A stretch of 64,000 bases of DNA from a virus (IMGVR_UViG_3300028591_000121:55417-119416), one strand, 5' to 3'; counted from the stretch's first letter, positions 7,195-63,600 are shown. Made by a program: numbers and translations. The notes: generated by a model not told the origin, from the letters alone.

Positions 7195-7608
7195 ATGAAT
7201 AAGATTTCTTTTCCATACTTTGTAGATGTAGGGTATGGGAATACATTCAACACGGATTGTATTTAGGGTGTAATCAGAGTAGGCACAAGAGGTGCAGATC
7301 GTACCCTTGACTGGGCTAAGAAGAACAGAAAAGTCTGGGATTGCCGTATGAATAAGACTCTGAACTCTATCTTCCTGCTGACAAATGGAGATGTGGTTAT
7401 GTCCCACTTGTCACTGGAGACTGCGAGAAAGCGTCTCAACTCCGGCATTCGACTTGCTGCCGACCCACCCGTCGAAGATAACGAGTGTCGATACACGGAA
7501 GTTATTATCCCAGAGACTCCGATTGTATTCCCTAAGCCAGCCCCTAAAGTTATTGACACTGAAGATATTTTTGATGAGGACGATTTCGAGGAGAGTGAAA
7601 ATGAATGA
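7195..7608 (+). CDS. RemA/DUF370-like protein; one in-frame TAG (7264)
   Basis: Read-through gives FVDVGYGNTFNTDCI*GVI...AKKNRKVWDCRMNKTLNSIFLLTNGDVVMSHLSLETARKRL, resembling RemA (INIGFGN...RIIAIV...VILSAVQPETV..RL). RBS AAGGA; ATGA overlap with thyX. Confidence 0.72.
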
Positions 7609-8282
7609 TTGAACTGCAGCCTTGTGCGAGGATTTAGTTTCCGACAACACCAGAACAAGGAGTGGAGATGTAGAAACTGTGTGAGTATGCGGCAAGAAAT
7701 TGCTACAACACTACAGCTAAGATGACTGAGACGAGCTACCAAAAGATGATCCCCGCCTAGCTTAAAAAAGGACACGAGTCTCCGATTGAACACTCGCTTA
7801 TGATTGCGGAGATTGTTACTGGGCGAGATGTTATGGCTGAACTGACCAGGCATCGACTGAACAGCTTCTCAATCCGCAGTCAGAGATATGTAGATGAATG
7901 CAAGACTGGCGATATTGCATTCTGTGTTCCGCATTTTGAAAGGTACGGAGAAGAGAAAGCCCATGTCCTGTATAGTCTCTGGAAAGAAGATTGTTTAGCT
8001 TGTGAGGAAAGCTACAAGTATCTGAAGGAAGCAGGAGCGATTAATGAGGACGCACGTAAGGTTCTGATTAACTCTACTGCTACTCAGATCATAATGAGCG
8101 GTAACCTTAGATCCTGGAGACATGTATTTCAACTGCGGACAGCGAAGGATGTGTATCCTGAGTGCAGGATCGTTATGTGTGAGTTGCTCGAAAAAGCCAA
8201 GCTGATGTATCCCACAGTGTTTGACGATATTATTCCTGATGCAGCAGAGGAGAACGACGATGGCAATAGTAAAGAATCCTAA
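7605..8282 (+). CDS. thyX: FAD-dependent thymidylate synthase; three in-frame TAGs (7635, 7671, 7758)
   Basis: AARNCY, GHESPIEH, ELTRHRLNSFSIRSQRYV, EDARKVL, GNLRSWRH. The N-terminal motifs are only included if TAG is read through. Confidence 0.93.
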
Positions 8283-8472
8283 CACGGAATTCCGCAAAGG
8301 GCTGAAGAAGCGGATCAAGTCAAATGGCGGTTATTGCCTGAATAAAGAGAAAGGCAATAAGGATAACAAGTGTCCGTGTAAAGAGTTTAAAGAGACTGGG
8401 GAATGTGAATGCGGGATGTACGTTACAATCCCCGACGAACTGCTTGGAGAGGAGTTCACAGAAGATGATTAA
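8260..8472 (+). CDS. Ferredoxin-thioredoxin reductase catalytic-subunit-like small Cys-rich protein
   Basis: NGGYC...KCPCKEF...GECECGMY. Confidence 0.7.
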   Translation: MAIVKNPNTEFRKGLKKRIKSNGGYCLNKEKGNKDNKCPCKEFKETGECECGMYVTIPDELLGEEFTEDD

Positions 8473-8980
8473 GTTTGAAAAGGTTTCATTTGAACAGTTT
8501 TGTCATGATTTTGTAGTGATGACTGGTGAGAATAACGAGTTTGATGAGCAGACTATCCGTGGGATTTATGATTCGATTCAGCTTCCCAAGCGCAGTACTT
8601 CTCAGTCTGCCGGATATGATTTCTTTACTCCGTATCTGTGTCAGATTCAGACAGGGTGTGACGCTCGTATTCTCACAGGCATTCGTGCCATTATGGATCC
8701 AGGTTATGTGCTGATGATTTATCCCCGCTCAAGTCTGGGGATTAAGAGCGGTGTTACTCTTGCAAATAGCACCGGGATTATCGATGCCGACTATGCAAAT
8801 GCTAAGAACGAAGGACACATCCACATTGTACTGACTGCGAAGGAGAGTCCAGTAAAGCACTTTGTTACTCTTGCTCAGGGTGACAGGGTTGCCCAGGGTG
8901 TGTTCCTCAAGTTCTTCACTACCGACGATGATGCGGCTGATGGTGTGAGGACTGGTGGCATGGGTTCTACTGGTAAGTAA
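8465..8980 (+). CDS. dut: Trimeric dUTPase
   Basis: SAGYDF, PRSSLG, GIIDADY, RVAQG, RTGGMGSTG. Confidence 0.93.
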   Translation: MIKFEKVSFEQFCHDFVVMTGENNEFDEQTIRGIYDSIQLPKRSTSQSAGYDFFTPYLCQIQTGCDARILTGIRAIMDPGYVLMIYPRSSLGIKSGVTLANSTGIIDADYANAKNEGHIHIVLTAKESPVKHFVTLAQGDRVAQGVFLKFFTTDDDAADGVRTGGMGSTGK

Positions 8981-9109
8981 GATGTATATCTGGCATAACA
9001 CAAGAGGTAAAGCGGATCAGTACTTTATTTGCAAAGGACAGAGAGTACTGATCCAGATCCCTAAATGGCTTGGAATGTTATTAATTAAATTATAAGAGGT
9101 GTTGTATTT

Positions 9110-9855: not shown

Positions 9856-9856
9856 T

Positions 9857-11785
9857 ATGGCTATTGCACCAAATTACGAATTAAGAAGAAAGAACATTAA
9901 CTTTATCAACAAATTTATTGGTGCTCAGAATACCGCATCAGGTAGCGAAGTAGATGCTAACTCTAATGTCAGCGGAAAGAATATCGCTACTATGTCCCCT
10001 GAAGTACACAAGAAAGAGAACATAAAAACCAACCGCCTGATGATGTACGATAAGCTGAAGGAAATGTACGGCGAGACTATTGCCGATAAGTACATTGAAC
10101 AGCTTGAGAAGCATGAGATTTATACACACGACGAAAGTACTTTCCCTTTTGCGGGTGTTCCTTATTGTGCCTCCATTACTCTGTATCCTTATCTGTTTGA
10201 CGGAATGACAAAGCTCTCCGGCACAACGATTGCTCCGAAGAATCTTGACTCATTCTGCGGTGGGTTTGTAAATCTCGTATTCGCTGTGGCTGCACAACTT
10301 AAAGGTGCGGTTGCTACGCCTGAGTTCCTTTCGTATATGGATTACTTCCTGAGAAAGCAATACGGAGATGATTATTATCTGAGAGCAAACGACGTGGTTG
10401 ATTTGTCTAACAGACATGCAACTATCGATATGGTCATCACAGATCATTTCCAACAAGTAGTGTACAGCATTAATCAGCCCGCTGCTGCTCGTGGTTCCCA
10501 GTCAGTTTTTTGGAACGTGGCATATTTCGACAAGTATTATTTTAATGCGCTTTTTGAAGACTTCGTTTTCCCTGACGGTACACCGATGCAGTGGGAATCC
10601 GTTAGTTGGTTGCAGAAGCGGTTTATGAAATGGTTTAACAGAGAGCGACTCAAAGAAGTCTTAACTTTCCCCGTGGAGACCTTATCACTTCTTAATGATG
10701 GCAAGGATTTCATGGACAAAGAGTGGGCTGACTTTGCTGCCGAGATGTATGCGGAAGGACATAGTTTCTTCACATACACAAGTGACAGTGTTGATTCTCT
10801 TGCAAGCTGTTGCCGTCTTCGTAACGGTATCACAGAGAACCAGTTCTCATATACTCTTGGTGCTGGCGGTATTTCTACTGGCAGTAAGTGCGTGATCACG
10901 ATGAACCTGAACCGTCTTGTTCAGAATAGAATGTGTGAACTCATGGACTGCAAACCGGGTGAAGAAGATATTGGTGAAATCAGAAGCGATAGTAACTTTG
11001 AACAGAACCTTAATGATATCTCTTATGCGGTAACAGAACAGACAAAACTTATCCATATGTATCTTTCCGCATATAATGAGATTGTTTTGGATATGACCCG
11101 TAAACATATGATCTCTATTTATGACGCTGGGTTTATTAGTCCTGAGAAAGAATATCTTACTGTCGGGATTAATGGTGCGGTTGAAGGTGCTGAGTATCTG
11201 GGTATTGACATCAGCAATAACGAGAAGTACAAGGCTTACATTAATGCGATCCTTAAACCTATCTATGAACTAGATAAGAAGGATAAAACCGCAGATAGAA
11301 TGTTTAACTGTGAATTTGTGCCAGCGGAGAACCTTGGAGTTAAGAATGCCAAGTGGGATAAGGAAGATGGATATGAAGTGCCTCGTCCCTGTTACAACTC
11401 TTACTTCTATATTGTAGAAGATGAGAAGACGAACCCAATTGATAAGTTCAGGCTTCACGGCAGAGAATTTACTCAGTACCTTGATGGCGGTTCTGCTCTG
11501 CACTGTAACCTCAGCGAACATTTGAGTAAAGCCCAGTATGAATTCCTGCTGAGATATGCCATTGTGACGGGTTGTAATTATTTTACCTTCAATATCCCCA
11601 ATACAATCTGTAATGACTGTGGTCATATTTCGAAGCACAAGCTTGAGAGATGTACCAAGTGTGGCTCTGAAAATCTTGACTACGCTACAAGAGTAATTGG
11701 ATATCTTACCCGTATCTCAAAGTGGTCTGCCGATAGACAGATCGAACAGGCGAAACGCTACTATGCTCCGTCAAATTGTGTCTGA
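9857..11785 (+). CDS. nrdD: Anaerobic (class III) ribonucleotide reductase
   Basis: LTFPV, ASCCRL, EFVPAENLG, YLDGGS, CNDC/CTKC and the glycyl-radical motif TRVIGYL. Confidence 0.95.
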   Translation: MAIAPNYELRRKNINFINKFIGAQNTASGSEVDANSNVSGKNIATMSPEVHKKENIKTNRLMMYDKLKEMYGETIADKYIEQLEKHEIYTHDESTFPFAGVPYCASITLYPYLFDGMTKLSGTTIAPKNLDSFCGGFVNLVFAVAAQLKGAVATPEFLSYMDYFLRKQYGDDYYLRANDVVDLSNRHATIDMVITDHFQQVVYSINQPAAARGSQSVFWNVAYFDKYYFNALFEDFVFPDGTPMQWESVSWLQKRFMKWFNRERLKEVLTFPVETLSLLNDGKDFMDKEWADFAAEMYAEGHSFFTYTSDSVDSLASCCRLRNGITENQFSYTLGAGGISTGSKCVITMNLNRLVQNRMCELMDCKPGEEDIGEIRSDSNFEQNLNDISYAVTEQTKLIHMYLSAYNEIVLDMTRKHMISIYDAGFISPEKEYLTVGINGAVEGAEYLGIDISNNEKYKAYINAILKPIYELDKKDKTADRMFNCEFVPAENLGVKNAKWDKEDGYEVPRPCYNSYFYIVEDEKTNPIDKFRLHGREFTQYLDGGSALHCNLSEHLSKAQYEFLLRYAIVTGCNYFTFNIPNTICNDCGHISKHKLERCTKCGSENLDYATRVIGYLTRISKWSADRQIEQAKRYYAPSNCV

Positions 11786-14040: not shown

Positions 14041-14589
14041 ATGGATATGGAATAGACAACAGGACAAGTATCCGCATATGAGAATGAGTCCCCAACCATC
14101 CTGCTTTTCTGTGCGGATTAGTCCCTGAGATGCCCAGGGTTTGCGTAGCTTGAGTTTAATAAGGAAACAAAAGAAGTAAAGCTACTCCGCAAATCCAATG
14201 TAGATAATCATGGAGCGAGGAAAGCACACGGACAGATGCTGGCTGAGATAGCCTAGGAAATCAAGAGCTATCTCAAGTCCGCAGAAGGAATGGTACTAGT
14301 TAGAGAGCGGGGGTTCTACAGAACTCCGAATGAAACGATAGCTCTGGCTAAGGTCGCTGGGATTGCAGACCTTTATGCGTACAGTTATAAACAGGCAACC
14401 TTCGACGAGATCGCCCCGGTGTCCATCAAGAAGACAGTGACGGGCAACCATAAAGCAGACAAGGATGAGGTGGCTCGTTGTGTTGAAAGGTACGTTGGAG
14501 TACAGCAGTATAAGACCGATGATGAGTCTGATGCTGTAGCCGTGGGGATCGCTTGGCTGATCCAACAGGGATACCTAGAGAAAATTTAA
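14041..14589 (+). CDS. RuvC-like Holliday junction resolvase; four in-frame TAGs (14053, 14119, 14146, 14254)
   Basis: LFCAD*SLRCPGFA*L (first catalytic Asp), LVRE, IKKTVTGNHKADKDEV, DDESDAVAV. Confidence 0.88.
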
Positions 14590-15890: not shown

Positions 15891-16592
15891 ATGAAGCTTG
15901 GAAGTTTGTTCGATGGATCAGGGGGATTTCCTCTTGCTGGGACTATGAACGGCATTGAGCCTGTCTGGGCTTCGGAGATTGAACCGTATCCGATCAGTGT
16001 TACTTCTGCGAGGTTTCCGCATATGAAACACCTTGGAGACATTACCAAGATCGACGGGTCTCAGATTGAGCCAGTGGATATCGTCTGCTTCGGGAGTCCG
16101 TGTCAGGATATTTCCACTGCCGGAAAGATGGTGGGGTTGCAGGACGGAAAGCGTTCCAGTCTTTTCTTTGAAGCAATCCGCATCATAAAAGAAATGAGGG
16201 ATGCAACTAATGGAGAGTATCCAAAATATGTCTGCTTCGAAAACGTGCCGGGAATCTTCTCGTCCAACAAAGGCGAAGACTTCCGTGCGGCTCTCGAAAA
16301 CTTCTGCTCGATCAAAGGCGGAGAAGTTTCAATTCCTCTCCCTGAAAAAGGGAAGTGGCAACCAGCGGGAGCCATCATGGGAGATGGGTACACAGTGGCT
16401 TGGCGGACAGTCAATGCAGTTTACTGGGGAACACCCCAGCGTAGACGTAGAGTGTACGCTCTCATCAATCTTACAGACGGATCTGCCGAATCTTGCTCGT
16501 TACTGTTTGAGCAAGAGAGCATGCCAGGGAATTCTCCGACGGTCGAGGGAACGTGGGAAAACGCTTCCCGATATGTTGCGAGAAGCACTTGA
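15891..16592 (+). CDS. DNA cytosine-5 methyltransferase, N-terminal part (motifs I-VIII)
   Basis: SLFDGSGG, GSPCQD, ENVPG, PQRRRR; ends in TGA without motifs IX-X. Confidence 0.88.
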   Translation: MKLGSLFDGSGGFPLAGTMNGIEPVWASEIEPYPISVTSARFPHMKHLGDITKIDGSQIEPVDIVCFGSPCQDISTAGKMVGLQDGKRSSLFFEAIRIIKEMRDATNGEYPKYVCFENVPGIFSSNKGEDFRAALENFCSIKGGEVSIPLPEKGKWQPAGAIMGDGYTVAWRTVNAVYWGTPQRRRRVYALINLTDGSAESCSLLFEQESMPGNSPTVEGTWENASRYVARST

Positions 16593-16635
16593 AGAGGTGG
16601 TCAACGATGGAGAAGAAGAAGGTAATCAGCCTTGA
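16201..16635 (+). CDS. Overprinted +1-frame ORF inside the methyltransferase gene (true start uncertain)
   Basis: TLSSILQ...YCLSKRACQGILRRSRERGKTLPDMLREAL, a peptide pattern I recognise from alternative frames of phage C5-MTase loci. Confidence 0.55.
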   Translation: MQLMESIQNMSASKTCRESSRPTKAKTSVRLSKTSARSKAEKFQFLSLKKGSGNQREPSWEMGTQWLGGQSMQFTGEHPSVDVECTLSSILQTDLPNLARYCLSKRACQGILRRSRERGKTLPDMLREALEEVVNDGEEEGNQP

Positions 16636-17686
16636 AGGTAACGGCTCACGCCCTTCCCATCGTGGCACAGGCTACTCTGAAAGCGGAGAGATGTTCACGC
16701 TGAACACGATTGACCGACACGCAGTTTGTTACCCTGTTGATTCTCACCCGATGGACGGAAGAATCAGTATTGCGGAAGACGGTGTAGTCCCAACGCTGAC
16801 TGATAAGTTGAGGAAAGGGAGCGCAGATGGGCCTTTGGTTCTGATCTACCGCCCTACATCCTGCAACTGTACGGGCTACGAAGAATCCGAAACTTCCGCA
16901 AGCCTCACTACTAAATACCATTACGGTCAGGGCGGAGACGCTGCGTTGATTGTACAAAGGAGTCCAGATGAGATGAAATCATATGCCGTAGAAAACCATC
17001 CCGCTGACAGCAGAGTAAAGATTTGTGAAGACGATAAAGTCCAGACCCTCTCCTCAAGGATGGGGACTGGTGGAAATAATGTCCCGCTTGTGATGCATGT
17101 GAGAGAGGGAGAAGAAGACATGGAATACTACGATATGCAACGGATTGGAGAGTACGGTAACAGCGGAACAGCAAGCACTCTCAAACAGCGGGACTATAAA
17201 GATCATACCGATCTGATCGTCGATAAGAATAAGGATCGTAAATATATTATCCGCCGTCTTACGCCAACGGAGTGTGCAAGACTTCAGGGTTTCCCTGACT
17301 GGTGGACAGAAGGAGTCAAGGGTTCTGATTCAGCGGAGTATCGCATGTGGGGCAACGGTGTCTGTCTTCAGAATTGCTTTTATATCTTGAACCGCATCGT
17401 GGAATATGAGAAGCGGAAGCAGAATTCTCCCGGCGTGAAAGAAACTCCTTACGCCCTTTATAAATTCAGCGGATATATGGGTGAGCTTCCGACTGATCCT
17501 AATAAGTATCTGCTGATCGCCGGAAACGTAGCAGACGATGACGAAGCCTGTAAACTTATCCGCAAGAGAGAAGACACTATCCCCTATCTCCGAATGATGG
17601 GGCCGGATATGGACACAGGAAGCTACTGGTTCGACTTCGGTTCTTACACACAATTCTATCTGCTGACTAAGAATTATCTGGGGTGA
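16607..17686 (+). CDS. DNA cytosine-5 methyltransferase, C-terminal part (variable/TRD region, motifs IX-X) plus extra C-terminal domain
   Basis: Own RBS GAGGTG; IRRLTPTECARLQGFPDWW; YRMWGNGV. Confidence 0.82.
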   Translation: MEKKKVISLEGNGSRPSHRGTGYSESGEMFTLNTIDRHAVCYPVDSHPMDGRISIAEDGVVPTLTDKLRKGSADGPLVLIYRPTSCNCTGYEESETSASLTTKYHYGQGGDAALIVQRSPDEMKSYAVENHPADSRVKICEDDKVQTLSSRMGTGGNNVPLVMHVREGEEDMEYYDMQRIGEYGNSGTASTLKQRDYKDHTDLIVDKNKDRKYIIRRLTPTECARLQGFPDWWTEGVKGSDSAEYRMWGNGVCLQNCFYILNRIVEYEKRKQNSPGVKETPYALYKFSGYMGELPTDPNKYLLIAGNVADDDEACKLIRKREDTIPYLRMMGPDMDTGSYWFDFGSYTQFYLLTKNYLG

Positions 17687-22450: not shown

Positions 22451-23927
22451 AATGGGTTGGATATATGGACTGATTTGCCTTGGAGTGGTTACTTCCCTTG
22501 CTCTTGGTTATCTCTGGGGTTGGAGTCGTAGCTTTGATAAGCAAGAAGAAGCTTACAAAGAAGAGTACGAACGAAGATATAGGATCGGATATGAGAACGG
22601 ATTCCAAGCCGGGAAGAAATATGTATACGACATGATACAAAGTAAGAAATATCTTACTAAGCATCAGATAGAAAAGATGGAGCGAAGATGGATAAGAGAC
22701 AACTCAGGAATAATCTTGCGTGTTACGAATCCGACGCTAAAGTCAACCCGGACTTTAAAATAAGCGGACAAATCGTAATTGACATGATCGAGTATTTGGA
22801 TTCTCTGAAACCAGTAAAGCCTAATCTGGCACAGATCGAAGGATACGGGTTGTCCTACTACAGATGCTTCTGCCCAAAGTGTGGTAACCACGTAGGCTAT
22901 GTGATCAACGGCAAGGTAGTAGGTGTAGGTATGGGATATGAAAAGTTCTGTAGCAATTGCGGTCAGGAGATTGATTGGGATGAGTTCAGCTGAGTATGAA
23001 TTTGTTTACGGTGTAGCTAATGGAGAAGATAACGTCTTTATCGTATCCAAGTCAAAGTTCAGTGAGATCGAAGCTGATAAGTTGTTCGTCGAAAAGCAAA
23101 AGCTTCCGCTTGAAAAAGCCAGAAAGATAACTGGTTGGTTCTATTGTGGATTCGCCTATAACGAAGACAACGAAGAAGTTTTAGGATGTTGGTTCAGTAG
23201 GAAACCGCTTGGCAGATGCGCTCAGGAAGTATACGCCTACGTTTATTGAGGAGATGAGTGAGATGTGCTGGCTTAAAGACGGATGTCCGGGGAAGACCGC
23301 TGCATGTTACAACTGCCAACCAACTGACGAGGGCTGTCCAGTCTATCGTTGGTTCAGAGAACTGATCCTTGAGAAAGAGAAGAAGATCGATGAGAAACTG
23401 GCGTGATGATCCGATAACGGAGAAACAACAGCAACTCATTAATGATATGCGGGAGTTTTCAGAGTATCCCCTTCCCCTGTTCTCCGGGACTACAAAAGGT
23501 GAAGCGTGTGATTATATCGACAAATGGATCAGCAAGTCACATGAGACGGTACTGGATTGTTGGGATACATCGCAAGGTATACCGTGACGATCATTTACCT
23601 GACACTACGAAAATGATCAGAGGTTGAGTGAGATGCGCTGTAAAGAAGATGTGATAAATAGTCTTGAGATTTGCTTGTACCCGCCATCGAAATGTGAGAA
23701 CTGCTCGTATTACGAAGATGAAGAATGCAACGACGATCTGTGCAGAGACGTATTGGAGTTGCTGAAGAAACAGCCTGAGATCGTACATTGCAAAGATTGC
23801 AAACATCTCTTTGACGGAGAGAACGACGAGAACTGCTGCGCTGTACTGATGGAGAAAGCTCGTTGGATTATTCCGATACAGGTTGATCCCAATTGGTTCT
23901 GCGGAAGCGGAGAAAGGAAAACCCAGG

Positions 23928-40011: not shown

Positions 40012-40056
40012 AAAAAAATGGGGAGTAGACCAATTAAGATCTACTCCCCTAATTTT
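40012..40056. terminator. Bidirectional terminator between the convergent arms
   Basis: GGGGAGTAGA/TCTACTCCCC hairpin flanked by A and T tracts. Confidence 0.85.
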
Positions 40057-40363: not shown

Positions 40364-40470
40364 ATTACTCACTCCCGTATACTTTATTTAAAAATTCCTA
40401 GTCATCCGCAGAAGCAACGTCCTCTGTATGAGAGAGGATCTCTGACGAGATACCTCTCCGATTCTTTAAT

Positions 40471-47039: not shown

Positions 47040-47132
47040 ATTCTGTGCTCCTTTCGTTTCGGTATGTTGCGTGATATATTGTATCATAACGTGCAATATG
47101 TTACAATACCGAAACGAAAGGAAGTGATCAAG

Positions 47133-49852: not shown

Positions 49853-50026
49853 TTATTCATAACGGGCAATAAACTCTATTTTAGAAGGAGTTATATCGCC
49901 AGATTCATCAACCGTCATAAAGTCCCCGACATGTTCCGCTCCTTGGTTCTTGTCGAGTTTTCTTGTAAGTTTTTCTTTTATCTTGTCAACCTACAAAGCA
50001 AGTCCATCTATATCCAAAAATTTCAT
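49853..50026 (-). CDS. Small structural protein; TAG at 49991
   Basis: MKFLDIDGLAL*VDKIK...KLDKNQG; paralogous to the N-terminus of 50519..52330. Confidence 0.7.
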
Positions 50027-50518: not shown

Positions 50519-52330
50519 TCAAGTAAGAACGCTTTGAACTGTATTAATAATAAATGTTTTTAAATCGATTATATATTCCAAGTTAAGAATTCCATTGCCT
50601 GTAATAGTTAAAGCACCAGAATCCCCTGTGGGAAACTTGCCAACAATCTCTATTGTCGATTCGGATTCTTTAGTGAGAGGTATAACGAAATAAACATTCT
50701 TATTCCCTAAAGCAGAAGTCCATGCATTTAATAACTTATCTGATTTAATCCAAATATAACCACTCTCAGGCATAATACTTATATTATCTGGAATAGAAAT
50801 ATTCGAATAAACATTAGAACTAAAGCCACCGCCTTTTAATTCAGTAAGCCGACAGCCAATATATCCGTCATTTCTTAACTCCCACGGCATTTGATTAGCA
50901 GGATAATCAATTCTTAAATTCTTACGCTTAACTTCGCCTGTAGCGAAATCAATTTTATCTCCCTCATAAAGAACAGGGATCTTGGCTTTTGTGCCTACCC
51001 ATCTTGTGTTCCCACTAGAGTCCTCAATTTTTACTGCATAAAATTGTAACGGATCTTCTGGTTTGAACGACGAAGATCTAGAATATGTATATCCTTCTGA
51101 CGTTTCCTGAATTGTATCGTAACCAAGAAGAGAAGTTACAGCTTGCGGATAATATATATTAGGAGAAGTTTCTCCCCCAACGTAACTCTCAATTTCCGTA
51201 AAATCATTTTTGCTTATCATCAACTTCCCATTCCTTTGAACAAAAGCATTTCTGGTATCAGAAGTAATAAAAATTGCGGTTAAATTTTCATTTGCGGTTA
51301 TTATTACTTTACTCTCAGTCACGTAATAACTTGTAATAGCAGTCACAATTTCATCGTGTTCATTCAATCCTCTTATAGAGATGGACGAACCGCCTTTTCT
51401 TCTGACATATAATTTTGTTCCTGCTGCTATGTTCACTTCAGAGCCATAATAAAGTGTGTTATGTATCGTCAGTCGATTATTAATGTCGATAATATTATTC
51501 CCCGGAAATGTTTTTTGAGATGTCTCGCCGGCTTCATATAAAGTGTTAACTGGATTTGTTACAGTTTTATCAAATACAATTCCTGTTAAAACAGTTCCGT
51601 TTTCTTCGTCTGTTACGATTCCTGCCTTAGATTCTTTTATCTCGTTAACAATAGGAATATAGCCTTCAGCGTCTGGGAGATATTTATTAATGTCTTCGAT
51701 AGCCTGGGTGTTCTCTTGAATAGCTTTTGTATTTTCATTTGTCCTGTTCAGAAGTGTATCTGATTTACTGTCTAAACTTTCTAAGCCTTGTGACAAATAA
51801 TCTGTCGCAGTTTCGAGTTCTGAAATCTATGTTGAGTTGTTCCCTATACGAGAATCCAACTGGTCTGCCGTTTCTGCTAACTCTTTTACAGCATCAACAT
51901 TTTCATTAATTGCAGAAACAATATCCGACTTCGTGTCGGTCGTTAATTCAGTAAGATCACCGAACTTTATGTCAGTCGCTCTGGATTCGCTTTCAATAGC
52001 TTCCGCAAGACTTTGTGTAGCTTCCTCACTTGCGGAAACCCGAAGTTCCTATGTTTCAAGCTGCCCATTGGTTTCTTCGATTTCATTTTCGAATTCAGTT
52101 GCCTTTTGAGAAAGTTCTCTTACGCTAATAGGATTCGACCCACCAGAATCAGCTACTAAATCTCCAGAGAAGTTCCCACTTAACTCGCTTGGTTGAACTT
52201 CGCCTTTGCTGTTTATGATCTAAACTTTCCCAACGTTTTCTGTTCCTTGTGCTATATTGAGTTTCCCCGCAAGAAGACTCCCTATCTTCTCGCAGAGTTT
52301 TTCAACGCCTTCTGAATTAAGAAATTTCAT
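50519..52330 (-). CDS. Tail fibre-like structural protein; three TAGs (52220, 52049, 51827)
   Basis: One frame from ATG 52330; GDLTELTTDTKSDIVSAINE coiled-coil motif; YVGG.TSPN..YPQ. Confidence 0.75.
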
Positions 52331-52350
52331 CCAACCACCCTTTCTTTGAA

Positions 52351-54300
52351 TTATATATCCGTAGTAGCTTCTTGCGCTGTTGCAACACGTAACCACATAT
52401 TAACAGCAAAATATGGCGGTAAATTCCAACCCGTTTCAGTAGCTCCGTGGTTGTGAGGCTGACCAATAGCGGTCCCTGTACGGACAGTCATATTACTTGC
52501 ACTTTGGATAACACCGTCAGATCTGGATCTATTATTTCTCACATCAGCAGAACCGCTTCCATCGCCGTTAACAGCAACAGCGGCTCTAGTACCACTACCA
52601 CTATAGCTTGTATTCCACCAGTCCAACATACCATGATAATGTTGCGGGATCTCATTGATAGCCAAGGTATGGTTTTGAGTTGCATGTGAGTGAGCATCTC
52701 CACCAGCTTTAGTTCCCACTATTGCATTCCATCCGCCAGTAATTGAACCTATACTGTTATCATCGTTTGCATTCGGTGCTCCGGCTGCAATGAGATATCT
52801 GCCACTGATACGTCTCCAATATGTACCGGGGAACAATGTAGCCGGACTGGTATTATCAATTGAAATGTATATACTGCCGATAGGATGAATCAGATCAATA
52901 ATCTCCTGCCCATGTGTGTACAGATTCCACGACGGGTTCATATAAACCTGATTCTGTCCATTGGAAGCCAGAGGATATGATCCGAATCCAAAGGAGTTCA
53001 AAGTCTTATCCCACCGCATGAATACGTAAGCTGTATCAATCATGGAATCGACTGTAGTTGTTCCGCCTAATGTATCCGTAACAGAGAACCGCACACTGTA
53101 TCTTGTGCCTTGGTCAAGGGCTGTTCCAGCGGTCGTTGATCCATACGAGTAAACGGTATTCGGCTGTGCTATTCCTGTGTGCATTGGCTGGTAATCTCCA
53201 TTTTGATAGATGGAAATTGTTGCTCCCGTGATGGTGTTGCCGTCCGCAGTATTGAATGCAGAATAGTTCATCCTTGCTCCACCCGTTACACTTGTGGGAT
53301 CTGGAGCTAATGTAGTTGGATCACAGCGGAAGCAAGAATAATCCGTGATCGTCGGAAGATTGTAATCCGCTACATATAAAGTTACTGATGCGGAAGAACT
53401 CTATCCTCTGGAATCTGTAACCGTAAGTGTAAATGTTTTTGTTCCCGCTGTTGCAAATATACTGGTTACGATTGCTCCTTGTGCTGCGTAAGTCGCATCT
53501 CCGCTATGAAGAATACTGTCTCCAGTCAGAGTCCATGAAGCCTAAGTAGCTCCTTGTTGCGGAGTAATTCCACTCCAACTAACTACTGCCGTTGACTTAG
53601 TCTTCCAAGGTTTATTGTTATACCAGTTCGTCAGACTTGGTTCTCCAACAGTAAGGCTCGTCGAACCAATAACGGGTTGATATGCGGGTGTATCGGGAAT
53701 CGATACAGTGCATGTTGTAGAAGATTGTCCGTAATAAGTTCCGTCTTTATAAGTCTGACAAACAATCGATAAAATATTTGAACGGGCGTTCGTCGGCATA
53801 TAAGGCAACCAAGTCGCTACATCGATTGTTGCGGAAGCCGTTCCTGCTCCGACACTTGTCGTTATCCAACCCGTATCATGAGAAGCTCCAGAAGGACTTA
53901 CCATCGTCCACTTGATCTTGTGTACAAGACCAGTCTAACCTTGCGAGTTGCCAATTGTAACAGCACTGAAATCCCCAAGAGTTATATTCCCCGCACTGAT
54001 TGTCGAGGGTCCCTACGCTGATTCATAGTATCCTGTAACCGATATATAGAAAGCACCAGTATTTGCAGATCGGACAGAGTAACTGCCAGAATTGCTTGGG
54101 CTGTTAATTGTATAAGTTGGATGGTTATTAATGTCTGCTATAGGAGTATCACCGTGATACTAATTTCTGGGAGAACCAGAAGCCGCACCATCGATAGTGA
54201 TAACCACACTTGTCATATTGTTTCCGCTTGGAGCAGACCAACTGAATGTCTTAGGGTTAGAACTGACAACCATTCTGTTCCATATACTAAAAGATCCCAT
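52351..54300 (-). CDS. Minor tail/baseplate protein (DUF859-like with fibre-type C-terminus); five TAGs (54160, 54013, 53935, 53542, 53401)
   Basis: One frame, 649 aa; TVTDSRG, HPIGSIYIS...SPATLF, HTLAINEIPQH, NLPPYFAVNMWLRVA. Confidence 0.8.
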
Positions 54301-54319: not shown

Positions 54320-57300
54320 TTACGTTGTCCATGCCCAGTTGATACTTCCGTCAGTATCTTTAGTTGCAATAATCCCGCCAAACTCTAAAGTGTAAAGGAT
54401 CTGAGCATGCGTGATCCAAAGATTGTTCTGCGAGATATATGCCACTTCGTTACCGCTGTCCTTGAATGAGAGTCTGTCGTTTGAAAGAAGAGTTGTCATT
54501 CCAGAGTTATTAGTCCCTTGCTTGCCAAGTTCAAGACCCGCTTCTGTAAATCTAATATAGGTTTTAACCTCTGCATCGTATGCATTTAAAGCATCAGCTG
54601 CGTCATTCCTCGCACTCGTTATTTCTGCCGTAAGAGACCTCGAAGTTTGAGTTAAAGTCGAACTAACAGAATCGATTCGAGTATCCAGATTATCTATTGT
54701 GTTCTCATAATCGAGCCGTTCTCTTACAGTGCTTTCAATTGCATCAGGAGTAATCTTCTGTTCTGCGGAACTGATTCTACTCACAATATCCGAAGCGTTC
54801 ATATTGCACTCAGAATAATCTGTTGCGAAATATCCCTTCTCAATCTTGCACTGTGTAACCATAATCACAACATCTTCTGTCTCATGGGTTCTAGGGCCAG
54901 TACAATAAATAGCCACTTCAACACCCGCAGTCGCTTTGAAGGTGATCTCAAATCTCCGCCAAGTAGAAAGCTAAGTGTTGCCCCAGATCGGAGTGTACTC
55001 ATTAGTACTTATAACACTCAGTGCTTCGTCCGGGCTTGCGTTAGAAGCGTCTGTCTCATATACGTTTACATAGACTTTTGTGGCGTATCTACAGCTTACA
55101 TAACCAGAGAAGGTGTACACTTCATTCGGTGTTAAATCTACACGGTTACTGTAAATACCAACTCTCTGCTCCGCAGTGTGTTCTCCTTGTCTGATAATTA
55201 CACACGTATTTACAGCGGGATCTCTAAACCCGCCGTATGTGTCTGTATCAGTATTGGGTCCGCAAACGCTGAAGTCCGTTGCAGCAACAACTTCCTACTC
55301 ATGAACAGAGTTTTCTTGTGTTCTGTCTCCGTCATTCATAAGAACCCAACCAATCGGATAATTGTGAGTACCATACATCTCGAATCCGCCGTTACGCAGG
55401 AGATTCACACCCGCATACAGATTATCTTCAGGAGCATTCGTGAACCCTGTTGCTGCGTTTCCTCGTTCAAGCTTGGCGTTATAGATCGTCGTTAATCCTC
55501 TGTCTGTTACCCCAGCCGGAACAGCATAGAGATAAAGGTCTATATTCTTCTCATCTACGTCTCCGTTCAGAATCGTAACAGAAGGATCGAGGTACGCTGT
55601 CTTGTAGCTTGTTACATCTACAGTAGCGGAACTGAACTCAGCCATATCCCGCCTGATCTGAAGCAGTGTTTCAAGGGCTGTTGCTTTGGCAATGCCGTCT
55701 GCCTGATCTGTAACAAAAGCTACGATAATTCCGTCCTCATCGTCTTCCAGAATCTTTGCGGTATCCCAAGTCTAAGTACTTCCGCTGACTGCATAGTAGT
55801 CAGGAGAATTAAAATTCTGGACATACGTATTAAGCTCCGCATCTGTATACTACTCATTCCCCGGCGGGGTAATCGCAGTCATCAGAAGCCAGAGAGTCGA
55901 AGTTGCGCTTCCCTCTGTCGCAGTAATACTCTTAACCTTACCGAAGATCGAATAGTACTGGTCTTCGATTGCATCCGTATATCCTGCTTCAGAAGTAAGT
56001 CTTCTGCCCAGAACAACTGGTCTATTCGTTACATCCACATTCCCGTTGACAAGACCCGTCAGGTACGTGTCAAGTTCTGCGGGAGTCTTATTATTTGCAC
56101 CGTTCACAATATTCCACGCAGCGACTTTATCTGTTGCGATCTGATCTGAGGACTGTCTCGCATACTTGGAAAGGAACGTTAGTGTTCTGATCTGTCTTGA
56201 TGTGCCATACGGAATAATATAACCGACGGACTGTCCGCCCTGGGAGAGACACACGTTATACTTCTGTACTCCCGTTGCAGGAATGAAGTCCATCGAGAGA
56301 GTGTACACATGGTCTTCGATTGTCGGTTCAGACAACTCAAAGATCGTAACCTAATCGTCTCTGTTCTTCCGTAGAATACTGGAGTTCAGGATCAGGTTTC
56401 TAGTTCCGTATGTGACTTGATCTTTTACGGACTGAGCAATGTATTCAGGAGTAATCTCAGCAATCGCATCCTTGTTCGCTTTAATACTTCCTTCCATTGT
56501 CTGCCTGTAGGTTTCGATCTTACCAGAGTCTCCGTACATATCCACTGTAAGTCCAGACACTTCACTCTTCAACTCATTAATACTGGGAGTGTAAGGAGTC
56601 GAGGGGCCGTACTCAACTTTAGCGGAATGGTAATAGACAGTAGATGTGTGTTCATGAGTTGAGTTCACGAGAAGAGCTTCCGCATACTCAACGTTATCAG
56701 ACAACGGAGCATTTACTTCGCACCAGTCTTCTTCTCCGGCTGCTACCGTTGTCTCACTCAGGTAGTCTGTATAAGTTCCGTCAAAGTTATGGAGTCGAAG
56801 TCCTACTTTGAAGCTGTCCGTTGTAGGAGCTAAGTGACAGCGGAAACTCAGAGTCTCTGCTCCAGCTTCGTCTGCATCAATCTCAACCGCTCCAAGAACC
56901 AGATCAGTTGCGACATCTGCTTGAGTCAGTGTTGTGGAAGTTCCGGCGAGTAAGTTATCGCCAGAAGATCTTTCCATATCCTGAAGTGCCTGTCCGACCG
57001 CCACATGAATTGATTGGTTTGCGGAAAGATCTAAGCTGTCACCCGCATGGATGTCAAGCTTATCTCCTGTGATACTCCCCGCTTCAATCTATGCTGCGCT
57101 CAGGTATCCAGTCACAATTGCATCAGCGGTAATACCTTTACCACTAGCTGCCGTTCTCCAGTTCCATTCTCCATCTTCAGTCTTACCGTTCGCAATCATC
57201 CACCCATCGCCACTCAGCATCATAGCGGACTGACCATCGGCGGCTTCGAACATAATGTTACCGTTGTCATCTGTATACCAAGAAGACACAGAACTCAGGA

Positions 57301-59287
57301 GACGATTCTTCATTATATCTATCGCTCCGTCCAGTCTGTCCATCATAATTGTGCCTTCTTTAGTTAATGCGTTGGCTCGTTGAAATACATCCTTTCTGGC
57401 TTCCATTTCACTAGCCACAGATGTAATCCTCTGAAGGATCGAGTCAAGGGATTTTCCTGATAAAGTTATCGACTCATTAGTGAGTTCTACTTTATCCTTC
57501 CAAGGAGTATCCAGATACTTTGTGATCTTCTTAACGTACACGATATCGTTGACATTGATCTTCGGATCGTAAATCCTGACTTGCGTATTCACTTCGAAGT
57601 CATTCAGGTCGTATCCGATCACGTCGCTCATCGCAACTCTGTTCACTGTATATGTGCGTTGCGGTCTGCTCATTTGATCGAGAACTTTAATCGCATCCGC
57701 ATACAGGAACTGTTCCTGCCCCTGGATATAATTGGTGTTCGACCAGTAGCCGTCCTTCTACATATCGCCCATGTCCATATAGAACTGGGATTCAAGGCTG
57801 CTCTGCTGATCCTGATAAGTACTCAGTACAGTCTTTGCATTGTACAGGCGGAAGTTCTAGTCCATGGCTTGATAATACAGAGTGTACAGACCAACAGTAG
57901 GAACTGCGTCAGGATCAGTGGTTGTCTCAGGAACACCCGTATAAATAAGCTGAATCTGAGTTCTGATCTCTGCGATTTGTCTGTCGTATTCTGCGATCTT
58001 ATCAGGATCGGTTGTCTGTCTCTTCAACCGCTCGATCTGAGTAATCGCAGACTCCTTAGCTTCGATAGAGACTTCCTTCGATCCAATCGTTCCTGCTGCG
58101 TTCGACTTGCCCTCAGTAGTTGTATACTTAACCGCATACACATCTCCGGCTTGGAAACCGAACGTGCTTGCATTGGATACAACTTCTTTGCGGTAAGTCC
58201 CGGAGGGGCCGACAATATGGAGAACATCCCCGACTACAATCGGAAGTTTATCGTCGCTGATATCCTCAGAACTCTTAATTGTGCTTTCTATCGAGTGAGT
58301 AGTAGAATTTATGTTGTATTGGACGAGCTAGGGTTGACCCCATAAAGTATTAAGCTCATTGCTCATCGTAGTGATTTCTGCCGCGTGTTCTCTGATGTAT
58401 TCAGTGATATTCATTATATTGGCGAGGAATGTATCGTAGATCGCCTGATGTTCCGCAGTAAATAATCCATTCTCTCTGTAGTAGCTGAAGTTCAGGAGAT
58501 ACGTCAGACCAGTCGGGTTCACATCGTCAATACCCACATACCCGTCATCGCCATACTCCCCTTCAACATACAGTCTGGTTACGATGTCCTCGCTCTTCTC
58601 TTCGAAGCTGATCGACTGAAGATCCTTCCCAATCATAACCTCACGCATATCGCCTTTATTATCCATAGAGCGGAACGTGACCATCTTAGTCCGTCCGTCT
58701 TCTGAACAATGGAAGATCGGATATGCATCGAACAGAGTACAGAGATCAGTGATCATCTTATAAGCCCCGGCTTTAGAGTTGGACTTCAGACTGCGGATCT
58801 TAACCGTCTCTCCGTCTTCCTCGTAAATCGTATCTGATCCCGCTGTATCGTAAACCCAACCAGTCCCGGCGAGAACCTGAGTAGCCAGTTCTTGGAGAGT
58901 ACCGATACCCGTCTCGTCTCCGTCAAAGGAAAGGTAAATATTCTTGGTCTTGAGTCCACCGCAGACATGAGAACAAGTCACAGTATTCTCAATTGACTTC
59001 GCATCCCTCTTCTTCTTCGGAGTATGGATAATAAACCAGTCGTAAGAGTTATCCTCTTTCTACCGTATCAGGTACTCGTTCTTTACGAAGTCCCAACGGT
59101 AATTATTCGATCCCTCATCCAGTACATAAGGTAATGTAAAGGTGAGAGTCTTCCAGCCAGTGATCTCATTCACCAGTGTAATGTCATGAGCCGAACCGGG
59201 AGTTGTAATTTCCGAATCATATAAGTTACAGACTTTTTCATAACTGTAATTGAATATGTCTAATGAGACATGTTTGCTCAATCTCAC
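54320..59287 (-). CDS. Tal/tail-spike-like protein, about 1655 aa; ten TAGs (59060, 58328, 57857, 57758, 57089, 56351, 55850, 55772, 55295, 54971)
   Basis: Eight ORF-track fragments share one frame and are separated only by TAG; IVTRLYVEG, NPTGLTYLLNFSYY, WNWRTA, GITADAIVTG, RNLILNS, YIRF...GLELG. Confidence 0.88.
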
Positions 59288-59299
59288 CCTCTCCTTTCT

Positions 59300-60400
59300 T
59301 TACCTCACAAGCGGGGTATATTCTATTCTAAAATCTGTCAGGGTAGCACCTTCACCCTGAATATAAATCTCATTCATCGTTGCAATTATTGTGTCACGGT
59401 TTCCGCCTGTAGACACTCGTTCACTCAGAATTGCGCTATTGGGGTTTGTCACACTGGCAATCTTGCGCCAACCAATTCCGTTGATATAAACATACTTTCC
59501 CACATCTGTAGACTTGCGGAACTGTCCGTTCGAAGTGATAACGGAAGAATTAGGAGTCGTATGGAACTGTATATTTCTGTACGCCCCGCAACTTGCAAGA
59601 GTAATATATCCGAAGTTATGGTAAGAGAAGGCATAGTCTCCGTTGCTGTGATATGTCACTGTTCCAACTGAGCTATCCTATATAAGGCGTTCATTGCCTT
59701 CTGGTAAAGAAACCAGCTTGCATACATCTCCAGTTGTGTGGTTCTCAATCGTGATCCCATTAGGAGCAGTACCGCCAATGCGTATCTTCACTAAGTTCGT
59801 AGTCTCAGTTCCGGGATTGTAAATCTACTGCGGCATTTGAGTGTAGGAAGTTATAAAAGGCATTTGACTCGTATCGACTAATCCACAATATCCTTTAGCG
59901 GATTCCCAGTCTTCGGTTGTCAAGTCAGCTATCGATTCGCTGGCTTGTGCGCTTGTAGAAATTGTATAGGTTCTATCTATTCTCGCATACGCTTCGTAAC
60001 ATGTCAGATAGAAAGTAATCTTACCAGAGAACCTTCCGTTCCCTTCCGCATCATACACTACATAATTCTCTCCTACGGGTTTCTTACTGGGTCTGACCAT
60101 ATAGTAGCACCAGGGGCGATCCACGAATCTTAATTCACCCACGGTATCTTTATGCATCCATCTGTAGATCGCTTCATACTCGCCCGGAGTAAGATCTTCA
60201 TAAAAACACAACAGAGTAAAGTCGAGGTTTTTCACGGTATTGCCAAACCAGTTTGATCCTACTCTGGCTGTTACCGATTCGGTAATCGGCGTAAATTCCG
60301 CTTGGTCAAATGCCCTCGCCTTCTGGTCTGGTATATACCTCAGTCCGAAGTCCTCGCAAGGGATCCCGCAATAGCTGAAACTATACCTCATAACTCCCAT
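59300..60400 (-). CDS. Distal tail protein (Dit)-like; two TAGs (59825, 59678)
   Basis: FSYCGI..EDFGL, GELRF.DRPW.YY.V, *IYNPG; located between TMP and Tal. Confidence 0.82.
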
Positions 60401-60600
60401 TTTCCTCAACTCCTTTAATACTAACGGTTATCTCCAATGGCTCTTTATTCTCACTTGCAAGCCTTTTTAATTCGTCTAATCCGACTTCCTGTTCGAGCTG
60501 CCTTACGGTTTCTTTCCACCTTCTGTCAAGTTCTTCTGATACAAACACAGGACAAGACTAATCAAACTACTCTTCCAACGGCAACTCCTTCTTTCAAAGA

Positions 60601-60629
60601 GGAGAGGAGAGCTTGTGACTCCCCTCTCC
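60601..60629 (-). terminator. Hairpin after the tape measure gene
   Basis: GGAGAGGGGAG/CTCTCCTCTCC followed by TCTTT on the - strand. Confidence 0.55.
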
Positions 60630-60638
60630 GTAATAGGT

Positions 60639-63600
60639 TTAGTTAATACGGACACCGCCGACGCTCATGCCCCGACCGATCCGTTCGTTAATGTAATCCA
60701 TAACACGTTCAGCGACTTCTTCATAATCAGAATCACTGGACAGCTGATCCACTTCAATATGGATACCGCCTTCGAAAGTAATATTCGAAGTACTTGCTCC
60801 ACTGTATTGCGGGTTCAGCGATGGCATACTCACATAAACTCTGTTCAGTGCTTCCATCGTCTTGAGAACCTTATCAAATGTCTCATTCTGTTCAGGAGTA
60901 AGAACACGTTCTTTCTTGTGGATGTACGCAATACCTTCCTGATCACCAGTAGAACCACCTGTATCGAATTCAGCTATACGCTTCTTCTTAATCAGGTCTA
61001 CTACTTTAGCGGCATCAGCCAAGGTTCGACCAGTTGTCTTTTCGATAACTGTATGATCTTTTTCAAGCCCCCACCCATCGATAACACCTGTGTTACTTCC
61101 ACTATTAGGGTCATTAGCCCCAGTACGTTTCTTTACCCCAGGATTATTATTGTTGTTGCCAGGGCCTCCGCCACCGCCGCCACCACCACTTGAACTGCTA
61201 CTGCTTGAGGATTCTCCGTTCCAAGTTGCAGCAGTGTTCGTGAAGTTGTGGAGTTCAAGGTTAGGATTAATATTCTCATACGCCCTATGCAGATACATTA
61301 ACTGATCACGCCAGTCTTCCAACATCCGCTGTCTGTCATACGAACTGGCTTCCATATACTCCTGACTATTCGCTTCGAGGAAAGCAATAATCGCTTCATC
61401 TCCGCCAGCAATAATCTGTTCTACTTCAGCCCAGACAGTTTCAGTAATTCCGCTCATCGTATTGAGTGTGTCTTTCCATTCCTCAATCATCTGAGCCTGT
61501 TGTTCGGACGTGGCGTTCTTATACTCTTCATCGTTCTCTTTGAGCCATGCGATAATATCTTCCTGAGAACCACCAAGCACACTGTTCGCTTCATCGGCAA
61601 AGTTGTGGTTGTCTTCGAGTAACTTATCATAGTACTCGTTCATCCGCTCCTGATAATCTTCGAGGTCTTCAACTTGTTTCTCAATAGACTTCTGCTGATC
61701 CTCTACGGATTTCTCAGCCGCATCCCAAGCCATTTCCTTCTGAAGATCAGTAATCTTCTTCTGGATTTCAAGTGCTTCTTTAGCTCTGGTCGGGTCTGCA
61801 ATAATACGGGCATACTGTGCCTGAAGTTTAGCTAACTCTACAGCCTTATCCTGTTCTTCAGATAACGCCCTTCTCTCGTCAAGAGCTTCAGACAGAGCAT
61901 TCGTCTCTTCTTCAAGGGCATCGATCTTCAGCTGAGTTGTACGCTCAACCTCATCCCGTTCCTTTTCGTACCGGGCTTTGATCGCATCTATAATTCGATC
62001 CTGCATATCCACATAGGCATTAGCAGAATCTTCTTCTCTCTGATTACGATCTTCGATTGCGGTTTTAAGAACGTTCCTCAGTTCGATCTCCTGTTCAAGG
62101 ATTCTTCTGCGGAGTTCTTTCACGGCTTCCGCATTCTCAAGAACAGTATTCTGGTTTTCAAGTATTGCAGTGTCATATTCTGCATAAGCATCTTGCAGTT
62201 CTTTCAGACGGGCGAGTACCTTATCATACTCTTCTGTTCCCTTCTGCTGTGCTGCGAGTTCTTTCTTCGTCGACTCAATACGCTTACCGACTGCATCCTT
62301 GTTCTTCTTATAAAGTTCAGTCTGCTCACGGATTCTCTCGTTCTGCTGTTTAATCGTATTGATCTCACCAGTCAGATAGCCTTGCATATCGTAACGCTCA
62401 CGCAGGATACCCAGTCTGTCGATCAGGTCTTGGAGTTGCTGCTCACGGAATTTAATCTGTTCTAACCAGTTGGATTGTTCAGTGGCTTTCTTGTCGGTCT
62501 TGGAGCTACTGGCGTTCTTATCTTTGTTACCGCCACCGCCTCCGCCACCACCTCCACCTTTTTTGTTAGAGGTTGTCTTGCTTCCAGTTGATCCGATGCC
62601 ATTAACATGAAGAGAAGCTACGGTTTTATCTGCATTAAGCGTTGCGGAAATCGTTGCACCCGCTGCGCTTAACATTGTATTGATCATATTGGCAAGGTCT
62701 TTTTCTGCATCCGATGCACTAGCACCTAACGTAATCAATCCGTTGTTCCAGGTAGAAGGATCGAAGCTAGAACCGGCAATTGCGTACATGGCATTAACCA
62801 ACGATTCGAGGGAAAACTGTGCCGTATCACATTGCGAAGTTAATTCAGACAAAGCCTATGCCATACCGCTTGCAGTAGAAAGCTGTTCTTCGGTCATGCC
62901 TGTAGCAGTTGTAAGATCTTTCATTGCATCGGTATATTCGGTCGTTCCCTTCTTTGCACCGTTTGATAACGTCTTGTATGCGGTCATGCCCTTGTTGAGT
63001 TTTTCCAGTGTTGCGACATTCGATTTGTATGCCTTACTCGCATCATCCATATTCCCATTCAGGACATCGTAAACCTTAGACATGCCATCCAGAATCTTAC
63101 CGCTCTTTTCGAGATTCTTCAGGTTCTTCATCTGATAGGCTTTCTCAGTTTCTTTGCCCCATTTCTGTGCATCTTTCGTTCCCTTTTTAAGAGCATCATA
63201 ATACTCGTCACTGAAGCCAAGCATCTTCTTGACACTCTTCTGTTGGGTATCGCTCTATCTATTCCAACTTTCGCCTAACTGCTGTAATCCCTTTTCGGAT
63301 TTAGAAAGCTCTACGATCTTCTTCTCGTACTTATCGATATCAGGAGATTCACTGTCAAGAGTCGTAAGAGAACCGAACATTCCGTCAGCTTTATACTCTT
63401 CACCAAATCCGTATTCCTTGTAAACACCAAGAGCCTTCATCAGATCATCAACACTATTAATATTAGAGGTATCGACCTGACCAATTTGAGCCATAGTGAT
63501 CAGCTACTGAGCAAGAGCCTGGTTAGCATCTTGAGCGTCACCCGCTATTCTTTCGAGTCCATCCCACCAACCTTCTCCGTACTCACCGAATGCAGATTGA

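Follow-up and report, generated by a model that had tools for sequence, protein, structure and literature searches.

The DNA analyzed here, referred to as the window, comprises the terminal 64 kb of one virus contig of 119,416 bp (G000:55417-119416). This report concerns the meaning of its amber codon TAG, which lies in frame within many otherwise intact genes of this phage and, judged from homologous proteins, very probably encodes leucine. The contig reached a CheckV completeness of 100%. Its ends overlap by ~117-141 nt, the last ~117 nt repeating positions 25-141 with a small indel within the first 24 nt, which makes the genome circular, with a length of about 119.3 kb; the IMG/VR label 'linear' is probably wrong. 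In the following, G000 denotes the whole contig and L002 a part of it outside the window, G001-G003 are relatives, L075 is a 116-kb relative from ENA, and coordinates without prefix refer to the window.

The genome is divided into two blocks. The plus-strand, early block (genome ~33.5-95.4 kb) holds primase-helicase, DnaE, NrdD, ThyX, RuvC, methylases, a restriction enzyme and an integrase gene. The minus-strand, late block runs from 95.4 kb across the contig junction to ~32 kb and comprises a second integrase gene, holin, endolysin, fibres, Tal, Dit, a giant tape-measure gene, head genes, portal and TerL, with four tRNA genes and a small sigma-factor-like gene at its head.

On the plus strand the first TAG-bearing gene after dnaE is a RemA-like gene (7195-7608; Pfam PF04025, 1.1e-08) with one in-frame TAG at codon 24. 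The thymidylate synthase ThyX (7605-8282; Pfam PF02511, 8.5e-40) carries three TAGs at codons 11, 23 and 52, and the RuvC-like resolvase (14041-14589; Pfam PF02075) four at codons 5, 27, 36 and 72. The C5 cytosine methylase (37986-39275; Pfam PF00145, 5.5e-82) contains TAG only as its penultimate codon (TAG AAA TGA) and shares an ATGA overlap with a TAG-free NgoBV-type restriction enzyme (39272-40009; PF09564, 1.4e-109), both together forming a complete restriction-modification pair (37986-40009). Other C5-methylase-like genes without TAG were found at 15891-17686 on the same strand. Furthermore, the Pfam-assigned genes of primase-helicase (26-1735) and DnaE (3979-7179), which delimit the early/replication stretch 26-7179, are TAG-free, as is NrdD (9857-11785, plus strand, Pfam), which is one intact gene of 642 codons. 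In the relative L075 (2097-6572) nrdD was called in three pieces, being split by an HTH-type gene and an HNH_3 gene in the manner of homing-endonuclease-like insertions.

On the minus strand the holin (40055-40372; PHROG 6918 'holin', 1.9e-11) carries two TAGs, one of them within a membrane helix (ALITL*AVLF, the asterisk marking TAG). The adjoining small open reading frame (ORF) obtained from the ORF scan (40365-40661), for which no family match was found in Pfam or PHROG, has six TAGs in 98 codons. Three TAGs are located in the endolysin with its NlpC/P60 and SH3_3 domains (41223-42029; Pfam PF00877, PF08239) and none in the tyrosine integrase (46026-47096; Pfam). The distal tail protein Dit (59300-60409; PHROG 202) has two. 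The long TAG-open frames of this strand belong to a tail-fibre-like protein (50519-52396, ORF scan, three TAGs), a baseplate or fibre protein with a Gp10_C domain (52351-54300; Pfam PF21939, 6.6e-15; five TAGs), Tal, a tail-associated lysin or receptor-binding protein of 1655 aa (54320-59287; Pfam PF06605, PF24049; ten TAGs), and the tape-measure gene (PHROG 4211 'tail length tape measure protein', 3.4e-13). The C-terminal 1106 codons of the latter occupy 60639-64000 and hold three TAGs (frame 60639-63959). The complete gene crosses the contig junction, continues through G000:1-11353 and amounts to 4857 codons within a stop-to-stop frame of 4859, containing 30 TAGs and not a single TAA or TGA. 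A tape measure of 4857 codons is exceptionally long for a siphovirus-type tail. With 20.7 kb from the late module as query, megablast yielded no match in 50,697 GenBank phage records.

Extent and conservation of the in-frame TAG codons

The initial annotation of the window had reported more than 55 in-frame TAGs in about 27 otherwise intact genes. The read-through itself was confirmed: the frames lengthen when TAG is taken as sense, without TAA or TGA inside, and the peptide motifs on which that annotation relied were all found in place (19/19). Our own count is 53 secure TAGs in 23 ORFs, where secure means beyond codon 20 of a strand-consistent ORF; a further 16 TAGs of the window fall within codons 1-20, a stretch that may precede the true start. 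Genome-wide, 124 in-frame TAGs occur in strand-consistent genes, and over >30,000 codons genes are interrupted by TAG exclusively, never by TAA or TGA.

As had been proposed, the true gene ends are TAA or TGA. Among 161 plus-strand ORFs of the early block with a length of 60 aa or more, 90 end in TGA, 69 in TAA and 2 in TAG. One of the two TAG-ended ORFs is the C5 methylase, whose TAG is usable either as a stop or as part of a two-residue extension to the TGA that overlaps the next ATG. The presumed exception at 60381 has no bearing on this, as the TAG there lies upstream of the Dit start and out of frame. Thus one stop codon occurs in frame in many intact genes and the remaining two continue to terminate genes, as in a recoded phage. 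A comparison of coding density between the codes by greedy ORF calling did not discriminate, since antisense frames, too, are open in the purine-skewed genome of this phage.

The distribution of TAG follows the gene classes. Of the 38 late genes, 25 contain TAG, with 101 in total, or 7.8% of the Leu-type codons of the late genes; the early block has 23 (2.1%), some of them doubtful N-terminal ones. This corresponds to 5.9 vs 1.7 TAGs per 1000 codons. Read-through is needed for holin, endolysin, Tal, Dit, tape measure, portal, TerL, ThyX and RuvC; the genes for primase-helicase, DnaE, NrdD, the restriction enzyme and the integrases are TAG-free. Enrichment of TAG in late and lysis genes, its avoidance in early and integrase genes and the presence of a matching suppressor tRNA (see below) are all features of recoded phages.

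Since the data stem from a single metagenomic contig whose ends carry an indel discrepancy, the TAGs could be regarded as assembly errors or as nonsense mutations gathered by a dead prophage. However, in three contigs from other metagenomes (94-98% DNA identity) TAG was kept in 50/54 comparisons at strand-consistent TAG sites, or in 54/58 if three sites in opposite-strand ORFs are included, and the four changed sites read TTG (twice), TTT and GAA (once each). TAG sites were conserved in the ENA contig as well. Close relatives of the phage comprise IMG/VR contigs of the samples 3300031867, 3300001483 and 3300032038, and ENA ERZ12302814. This conservation in independent assemblies excludes assembly error and gene decay; with the exclusive interruption by TAG, the matching tRNA(CUA) and the completeness of the contig also speaking against it, the probability left to such an artefact is practically nil.

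Residues facing TAG in homologous proteins

In order to determine the residue encoded by TAG, the codon was translated as X and the proteins were compared with standard-code or lightly recoded relatives found via TerL in IMG/VR. Opposite TAG (204 residues, 48 sites) the alignments contained 44% L, 9% each of I, V and M, 5% A and 1% Q, a profile close to the one that these alignments give for ordinary Leu codons (L 44%, I 14%, V 8%, M 7%) and distinct from that of the Gln codons (Q 29%, E 12%, K 10%). Leu ranked first with each single relative taken alone. The homologue tabulation, which the initial annotation had suggested as a check, is thus dominated by Leu and not by Gln, in support of its leucine reading. 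In a codon-by-codon likelihood test on the same alignments, with each column weighted once (48 TAG columns), the standard meaning was recovered for all 61 sense codons, including TCA as Ser, and TAG was assigned to Leu. The margin of Leu over Met was 7.4 nats for TAG and 9.9 nats for TTG. Within the window, the N-terminus beginning with MKFL of the protein at 50519-52396 is paralogous to 49979-50026 and places Leu opposite TAG, as had been noted previously.

Three independent libraries, holding billions of proteins, gave a similar picture. For the portal (eight TAGs), searched against a library of 1.84 billion representatives, L amounted to 36%, I to 15% and Q to 0.8%; column 84 was L in 37/42 sequences, column 81 L in 26 and I in 12 of 41, and column 305 L in 39/82. 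In a very large protein library, RuvC column 27 was L in 54/63 homologues, column 36 was divided between L (22), V (22) and I (9), and column 72 was variable. The Tal columns were L in 114/120 (510), L 61, Y 24 and V 15 (76) and L 28 and S 23 (477). When 51 non-redundant TAG sites were classed by their commonest residue, L led at 22 sites, V at five, I at four, M at three and Q at two; for the strongly conserved sites this residue was L at 7 and R, S and V at one each.

Codon exchanges between close relatives point in the same direction: TAG and TTG replace each other twice, ThyX of L075 has TAG where the gene in the window has CTG, within the conserved EL-RHR motif, and the lightly recoded relatives align their own TAG with a Leu of this phage. 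The ThyX sites at codons 11, 23 and 52 correspond to I, L and L in the relative G003 and to F or I, E or P, and M or I in PDB chains, i.e. two of three are hydrophobic and one is variable. The endolysin sites face K and M at two positions in G001, and for Dit, relatives place Y or Q opposite one TAG and V or I opposite the second. For RuvC the sole solved match in the PDB does not span the TAG sites.

Glutamine (NCBI table 15) is the only meaning of TAG described for phages in the literature searched, namely in crAss-like, Lak, Garnet, Topaz and phAss-1 phages, and database proteins of close relatives of the present phage indeed show Q at the TAG sites. These residues are a product of the annotation pipeline in the one case checked: the public RuvC protein P0151 of a 92%-identical relative has Gln at three TAG sites, one of which is Leu in the 54/63 homologues mentioned above, and it matches its own DNA only 'with_TAG=Q'. 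A current pipeline therefore mistranslates this phage clade. The Q residues of P0271-P0274 were presumably made in the same way, as they occur at the same sites. Because such residues of mistranslated close relatives contaminate the homologue columns, they need to be filtered out, and in homologues below 60% identity Q makes up ~1% opposite TAG. The Gln-dominated columns that mark code 15 were not found (Q ~1%, L 36-44%), and the conserved columns are Leu in 114/120, 54/63 and 37/42 sequences. At the level of sequence, glutamine is already contradicted by the homologue columns, and we regard it as highly improbable. Instead, TAG is predicted with high confidence to encode leucine, in a code formally identical to NCBI table 16: homologues assign TAG to Leu, the other codons are standard, and TAA and TGA are stops.

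The phage tRNA(CUA) and its proposed role

A search of the whole genome for a suppressor tRNA, as called for by the initial annotation, was successful outside the window. At the head of the late block the minus strand carries all four tRNA genes of the genome, identified as Met(CAU), Asn(GUU), tRNA(UAU) and tRNA(CUA). The last, the only one with this anticodon, was detected by both ARAGORN and Rfam (tRNA model, 54.8 bits) at G000:29149-29224 (L002:11149-11224, minus strand), 26 kb before the window. It exhibits C2-G71, A73, U8, A14, A15, G18G19 and U48, and a G-U pair at 1:72. The D stem has 3 bp and includes the mismatch G13-A22, the variable loop has 7 nt with U as its last base, and the T loop reads UUCAAAU. 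The D arm of this tRNA, GCAG-AACGGCCU-AUGC, parallels GCGG-AACUGGCAG-ACGC of a tRNA-Leu from a Clostridium metagenome-assembled genome (MAG), and the best overall matches among 38 reference tRNAs were tRNA-Leu(AAG) and tRNA-Leu(CAA), by a small margin. U35 of a CUA anticodon is an identity element of glutaminyl-tRNA synthetase (GlnRS) in E. coli and would as such favour glutamine; against this, the tRNA-Gln type with a weak 1:72 pair, G73 and G2-C71 is not what was found, the phage tRNA having A73 and C2-G71. All elements of the identity set listed for E. coli leucyl-tRNA synthetase (LeuRS), i.e. A73, A14, A15-U48, G18G19 pairing U55C56, and U54-A58 (PMC6614811), are present in it.

Another tRNA of the cluster, 89 nt long (L002:8865-8952, minus strand; G000:26864-26952; Rfam 55.4 bits) has the anticodon loop CUUAUAA, hence the anticodon UAU, which would read AUA, and it combines in an odd way an ordinary 4-bp D stem with a variable region of ~20 nt. 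ATA columns in homologues are still Ile-like, by a small margin of 4.9 nats over Val (82 columns). A match to a group I intron model just below threshold (L002:9044-9233, minus strand; 49.9 bits vs a cut-off of 50) sits between the tRNA cluster and a DUF2828/DUF7788 (Ro/TROVE-like) gene (L002:9315-10763, minus strand). The tRNA-Met gene (G000:24656-24728, minus strand) lies inside the 5' part of a 375-codon ORF called as the longest frame (23697-24824), so that the true start of that gene must be downstream of the tRNA.

Most likely, TAG is decoded by this tRNA(CUA) at the head of the late gene block. Host LeuRS would charge it, given that LeuRS ignores the anticodon, as stated in PMC11028032, and that the tRNA keeps the bacterial tRNA-Leu identity features. 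Host release factor 1 (RF1) would be outcompeted at the TAG codons. The base following TAG is T in 8.9% of cases vs 18.3% for Leu codons (p=0.006) and a purine in 78%. A purine-rich, T-poor context behind the codon favours amber suppression. As virion and lysis genes, together with some genes for recombination and nucleotides, need TAG while early, replication and integrase genes avoid it, the late proteins would depend on the suppressor tRNA and full-length copies would be made only once it is present, constituting a timing switch. This regulatory logic is the same as that proposed for TAG=Gln phages.

Alternatively, leucine could be inserted at TAG by the host, which would lack RF1 activity or possess its own TAG=Leu decoding, with the phage tRNA being supplementary. 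Neither the release-factor domains PF00472 and PF03462 nor the class Ia synthetase domain PF00133 was found in the phage genome, TAG is almost unused as a stop even in early genes (2/161 ORFs), and 30 TAGs in one gene demand near-complete suppression, all of which would suit such a host. On the other hand, no bacterial TAG=Leu code was found in the literature searched, standard-code hosts are predicted for recoded phages by Borges et al., and relatives carrying the tRNA have just 1-2 TAGs. The avoidance of sense TAG in early, replication and integrase genes furthermore fits expression before a phage-supplied decoder is available. Decoding by the host is thus quite improbable in our estimation. 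When 185,579 species genomes were scanned with a TerL profile, a single contig was obtained (37% identity), which belongs to a 'Clostridium sp.' MAG and looks like a binned phage contig; TerL found nothing further among 399 scored genomes of the class of that MAG.

Returning to leucine inserted via the phage tRNA, several observations weigh against it. Nearly every bacterial tRNA-Leu has a long (type II) variable arm, which is missing from the tRNA(CUA), although a bacterial LeuRS does charge one tRNA-Leu whose variable loop is short (PMC6614811). The similarity of the phage tRNA to tRNA-Leu is weak, and the suppressor tRNAs of the relatives could not be typed by similarity to the 38 reference tRNAs. 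Without a phage gene for RF1, RF2 or LeuRS, 30 suppressions in one protein beside host RF1 lack an explanation. In Tal, codon 733 (57089-57091) aligns unambiguously with an Arg kept in 110/119 homologues (LSA-D/E-R-IEAGSI). Close recoded relatives retain TAG at this site and the preceding acidic residue is Ala in this phage; possibly, a D/E-R pair has been lost here. Tal codon 320 faces K or N (K 48). A likelihood test on the ten Tal sites alone does not single out Leu, owing to these Arg and Lys columns and to C-terminal sites that align only with close relatives mistranslated as Gln. Finally, Leu is the commonest residue at 43% of the TAG sites vs 69% of ordinary Leu sites. This lower conservation would fit a young codon spreading at tolerant positions, and it also leaves some room for ambiguity.

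The same data bear on the question whether a hydrophobic residue other than Leu (Met, Ile or Val) is inserted at TAG, or whether decoding is ambiguous, so that leucine would be just the nearest single label. Met is just 7.4 nats behind Leu over the 48 columns, I, V and M together are commonest at 12/51 sites, TAG sites are less Leu-like than Leu sites, and one TAG faces the conserved Arg. Against a different hydrophobic residue, the strongly conserved columns are Leu at 7/10, Val at one and Met or Ile at none, the profile opposite TAG nearly equals that of TTG and the other Leu codons, and the swaps in close relatives lead to TTG and CTG. Moreover, the methionyl- and isoleucyl-tRNA synthetases both read the anticodon, so that a CUA tRNA would be a poor substrate for them. 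Furthermore, a single tRNA(CUA) is present. We consider this possibility unlikely, and leucine remains the preferred assignment.

Relatives, consequences and known systems

The small sigma-factor-like gene (L002:11997-12413, minus strand; G000:29997-30413; PHROG 3512, weak GerE match) lies 0.8 kb upstream of tRNA(CUA) and contains five TAGs in 138 codons. One of them is conserved as TAG in G001, G002 and G003. A gene-restricted check of these relatives revealed, besides this one, a single genuine in-frame TAG, which faces a Leu of the present phage, so that the tRNA-carrying relatives use just 1-2 TAGs. Their tRNA(CUA) genes likewise have A73 and 3-bp D stems, with a variable region of ~14 nt in G002 and ~9 nt in G001 and G003. 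The sigma-factor-like gene may act as a suppressor-dependent late switch. The few TAGs of the relatives suggest an older, minimal suppressor-dependent circuit from which TAG spread later.

On balance, we lean towards a scenario in which a gut/rumen siphovirus-like clade evolved an undescribed viral code with TAG=Leu, grown from a minimal tRNA(CUA) circuit to >120 sites, while the variable arm of a decoder derived from tRNA-Leu shrank from type II towards type I. In this scenario the ancestral stage would have consisted of tRNA(CUA) and one or two TAGs, one of them in the sigma-factor-like late regulator, a state still found in G001-G003.

If true, leucine would be the third amino acid among the known phage stop-codon reassignments, and a virus could exploit any anticodon-blind synthetase, beyond GlnRS and tryptophanyl-tRNA synthetase (TrpRS), which were proposed by Borges et al. 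TAG-recoded phages would then not uniformly use code 15, and a share of the public 'code 15' proteomes would contain Gln in place of Leu. Gene callers that detect TAG recoding write Gln, and structure prediction, family assignment and design inherit such errors. Relatives with the tRNA and 1-2 TAGs beside a heavily recoded genome provide a natural series for stop-codon capture. Furthermore, a compact natural amber suppressor of Leu type whose variable loop is short and whose efficiency is apparently very high is of interest to genetic-code engineering.

The recodings described for phages in the literature searched are TAG=Gln, TGA=Trp and, where the host uses code 25, TGA=Gly. Borges et al. 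(bioRxiv 10.1101/2021.08.26.457843) saw only TAG-to-Gln and TGA-to-Trp in phages differing from the code of their host and found the recoded codon avoided in integrases, and TAG was taken as Gln throughout for phAss-1, in Pharokka-gv and in a 2026 jumbo-phage survey. Our full-text search for phage TAG/UAG-to-leucine returned mitochondrial and ciliate cases only, which, for a single library, does not prove absence; the novelty claimed for TAG=Leu in phages in the initial annotation is consistent with this literature. The code 15 phages (Borges et al., bioRxiv 10.1101/2021.08.26.457843; PMC9523058; PMC10607447) resemble the present phage in that in-frame TAG occurs in many genes and a phage tRNA(CUA) is present, with recoding found mostly in the genes for structure and lysis, the recoded codon avoided by early and integrase genes, and no phage synthetase. 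They differ in the amino acid, Gln there and predicted Leu here, whereas the present phage has a tRNA with A73 and a tRNA-Leu-like D arm, and no RF2 gene was found in it.

NCBI table 16, known from chlorophycean mitochondria, shares TAG=Leu, TAA and TGA as stops and an otherwise standard code, and UAG=Leu also occurs in chytrid mitochondria and in some phyllopharyngean ciliates (PMC6551751, PMC6131824, PMC11687900). These are organelle or nuclear genomes with complete translation systems of their own, whereas here a virus appears to impose TAG=Leu with one tRNA, mostly on late genes.

The nearest parallels for the decoder itself are changed-anticodon tRNAs. Amber suppressors derived from tRNA-Leu are established in the laboratory as the E. 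coli supP type. Together with the anticodon-variant tRNA-Leu mistranslators (PMC11028032), they resemble the phage tRNA in that the anticodon is changed and charging with Leu persists, as LeuRS is blind to the anticodon. A single base change leads from CAA to CUA, and likewise from TTG to TAG. These tRNAs differ in being single mutations in a type II tRNA with partial suppression, whereas the variable loop of the phage tRNA has 7 nt and its suppression must be very efficient, with 30 sites in one protein. A bacterial precedent for the architecture of the phage tRNA(CUA) is the type I tRNA-Leu(CAA) of Streptomyces coelicolor (PMC6614811), which also has no long variable arm and is leucylated by a normal LeuRS. 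It needs U8-A14 and nucleotide 48, both of which the phage tRNA has; it differs in being a cellular sense-codon tRNA whose charging requires a special LeuRS domain of that genus (PMC6614811).

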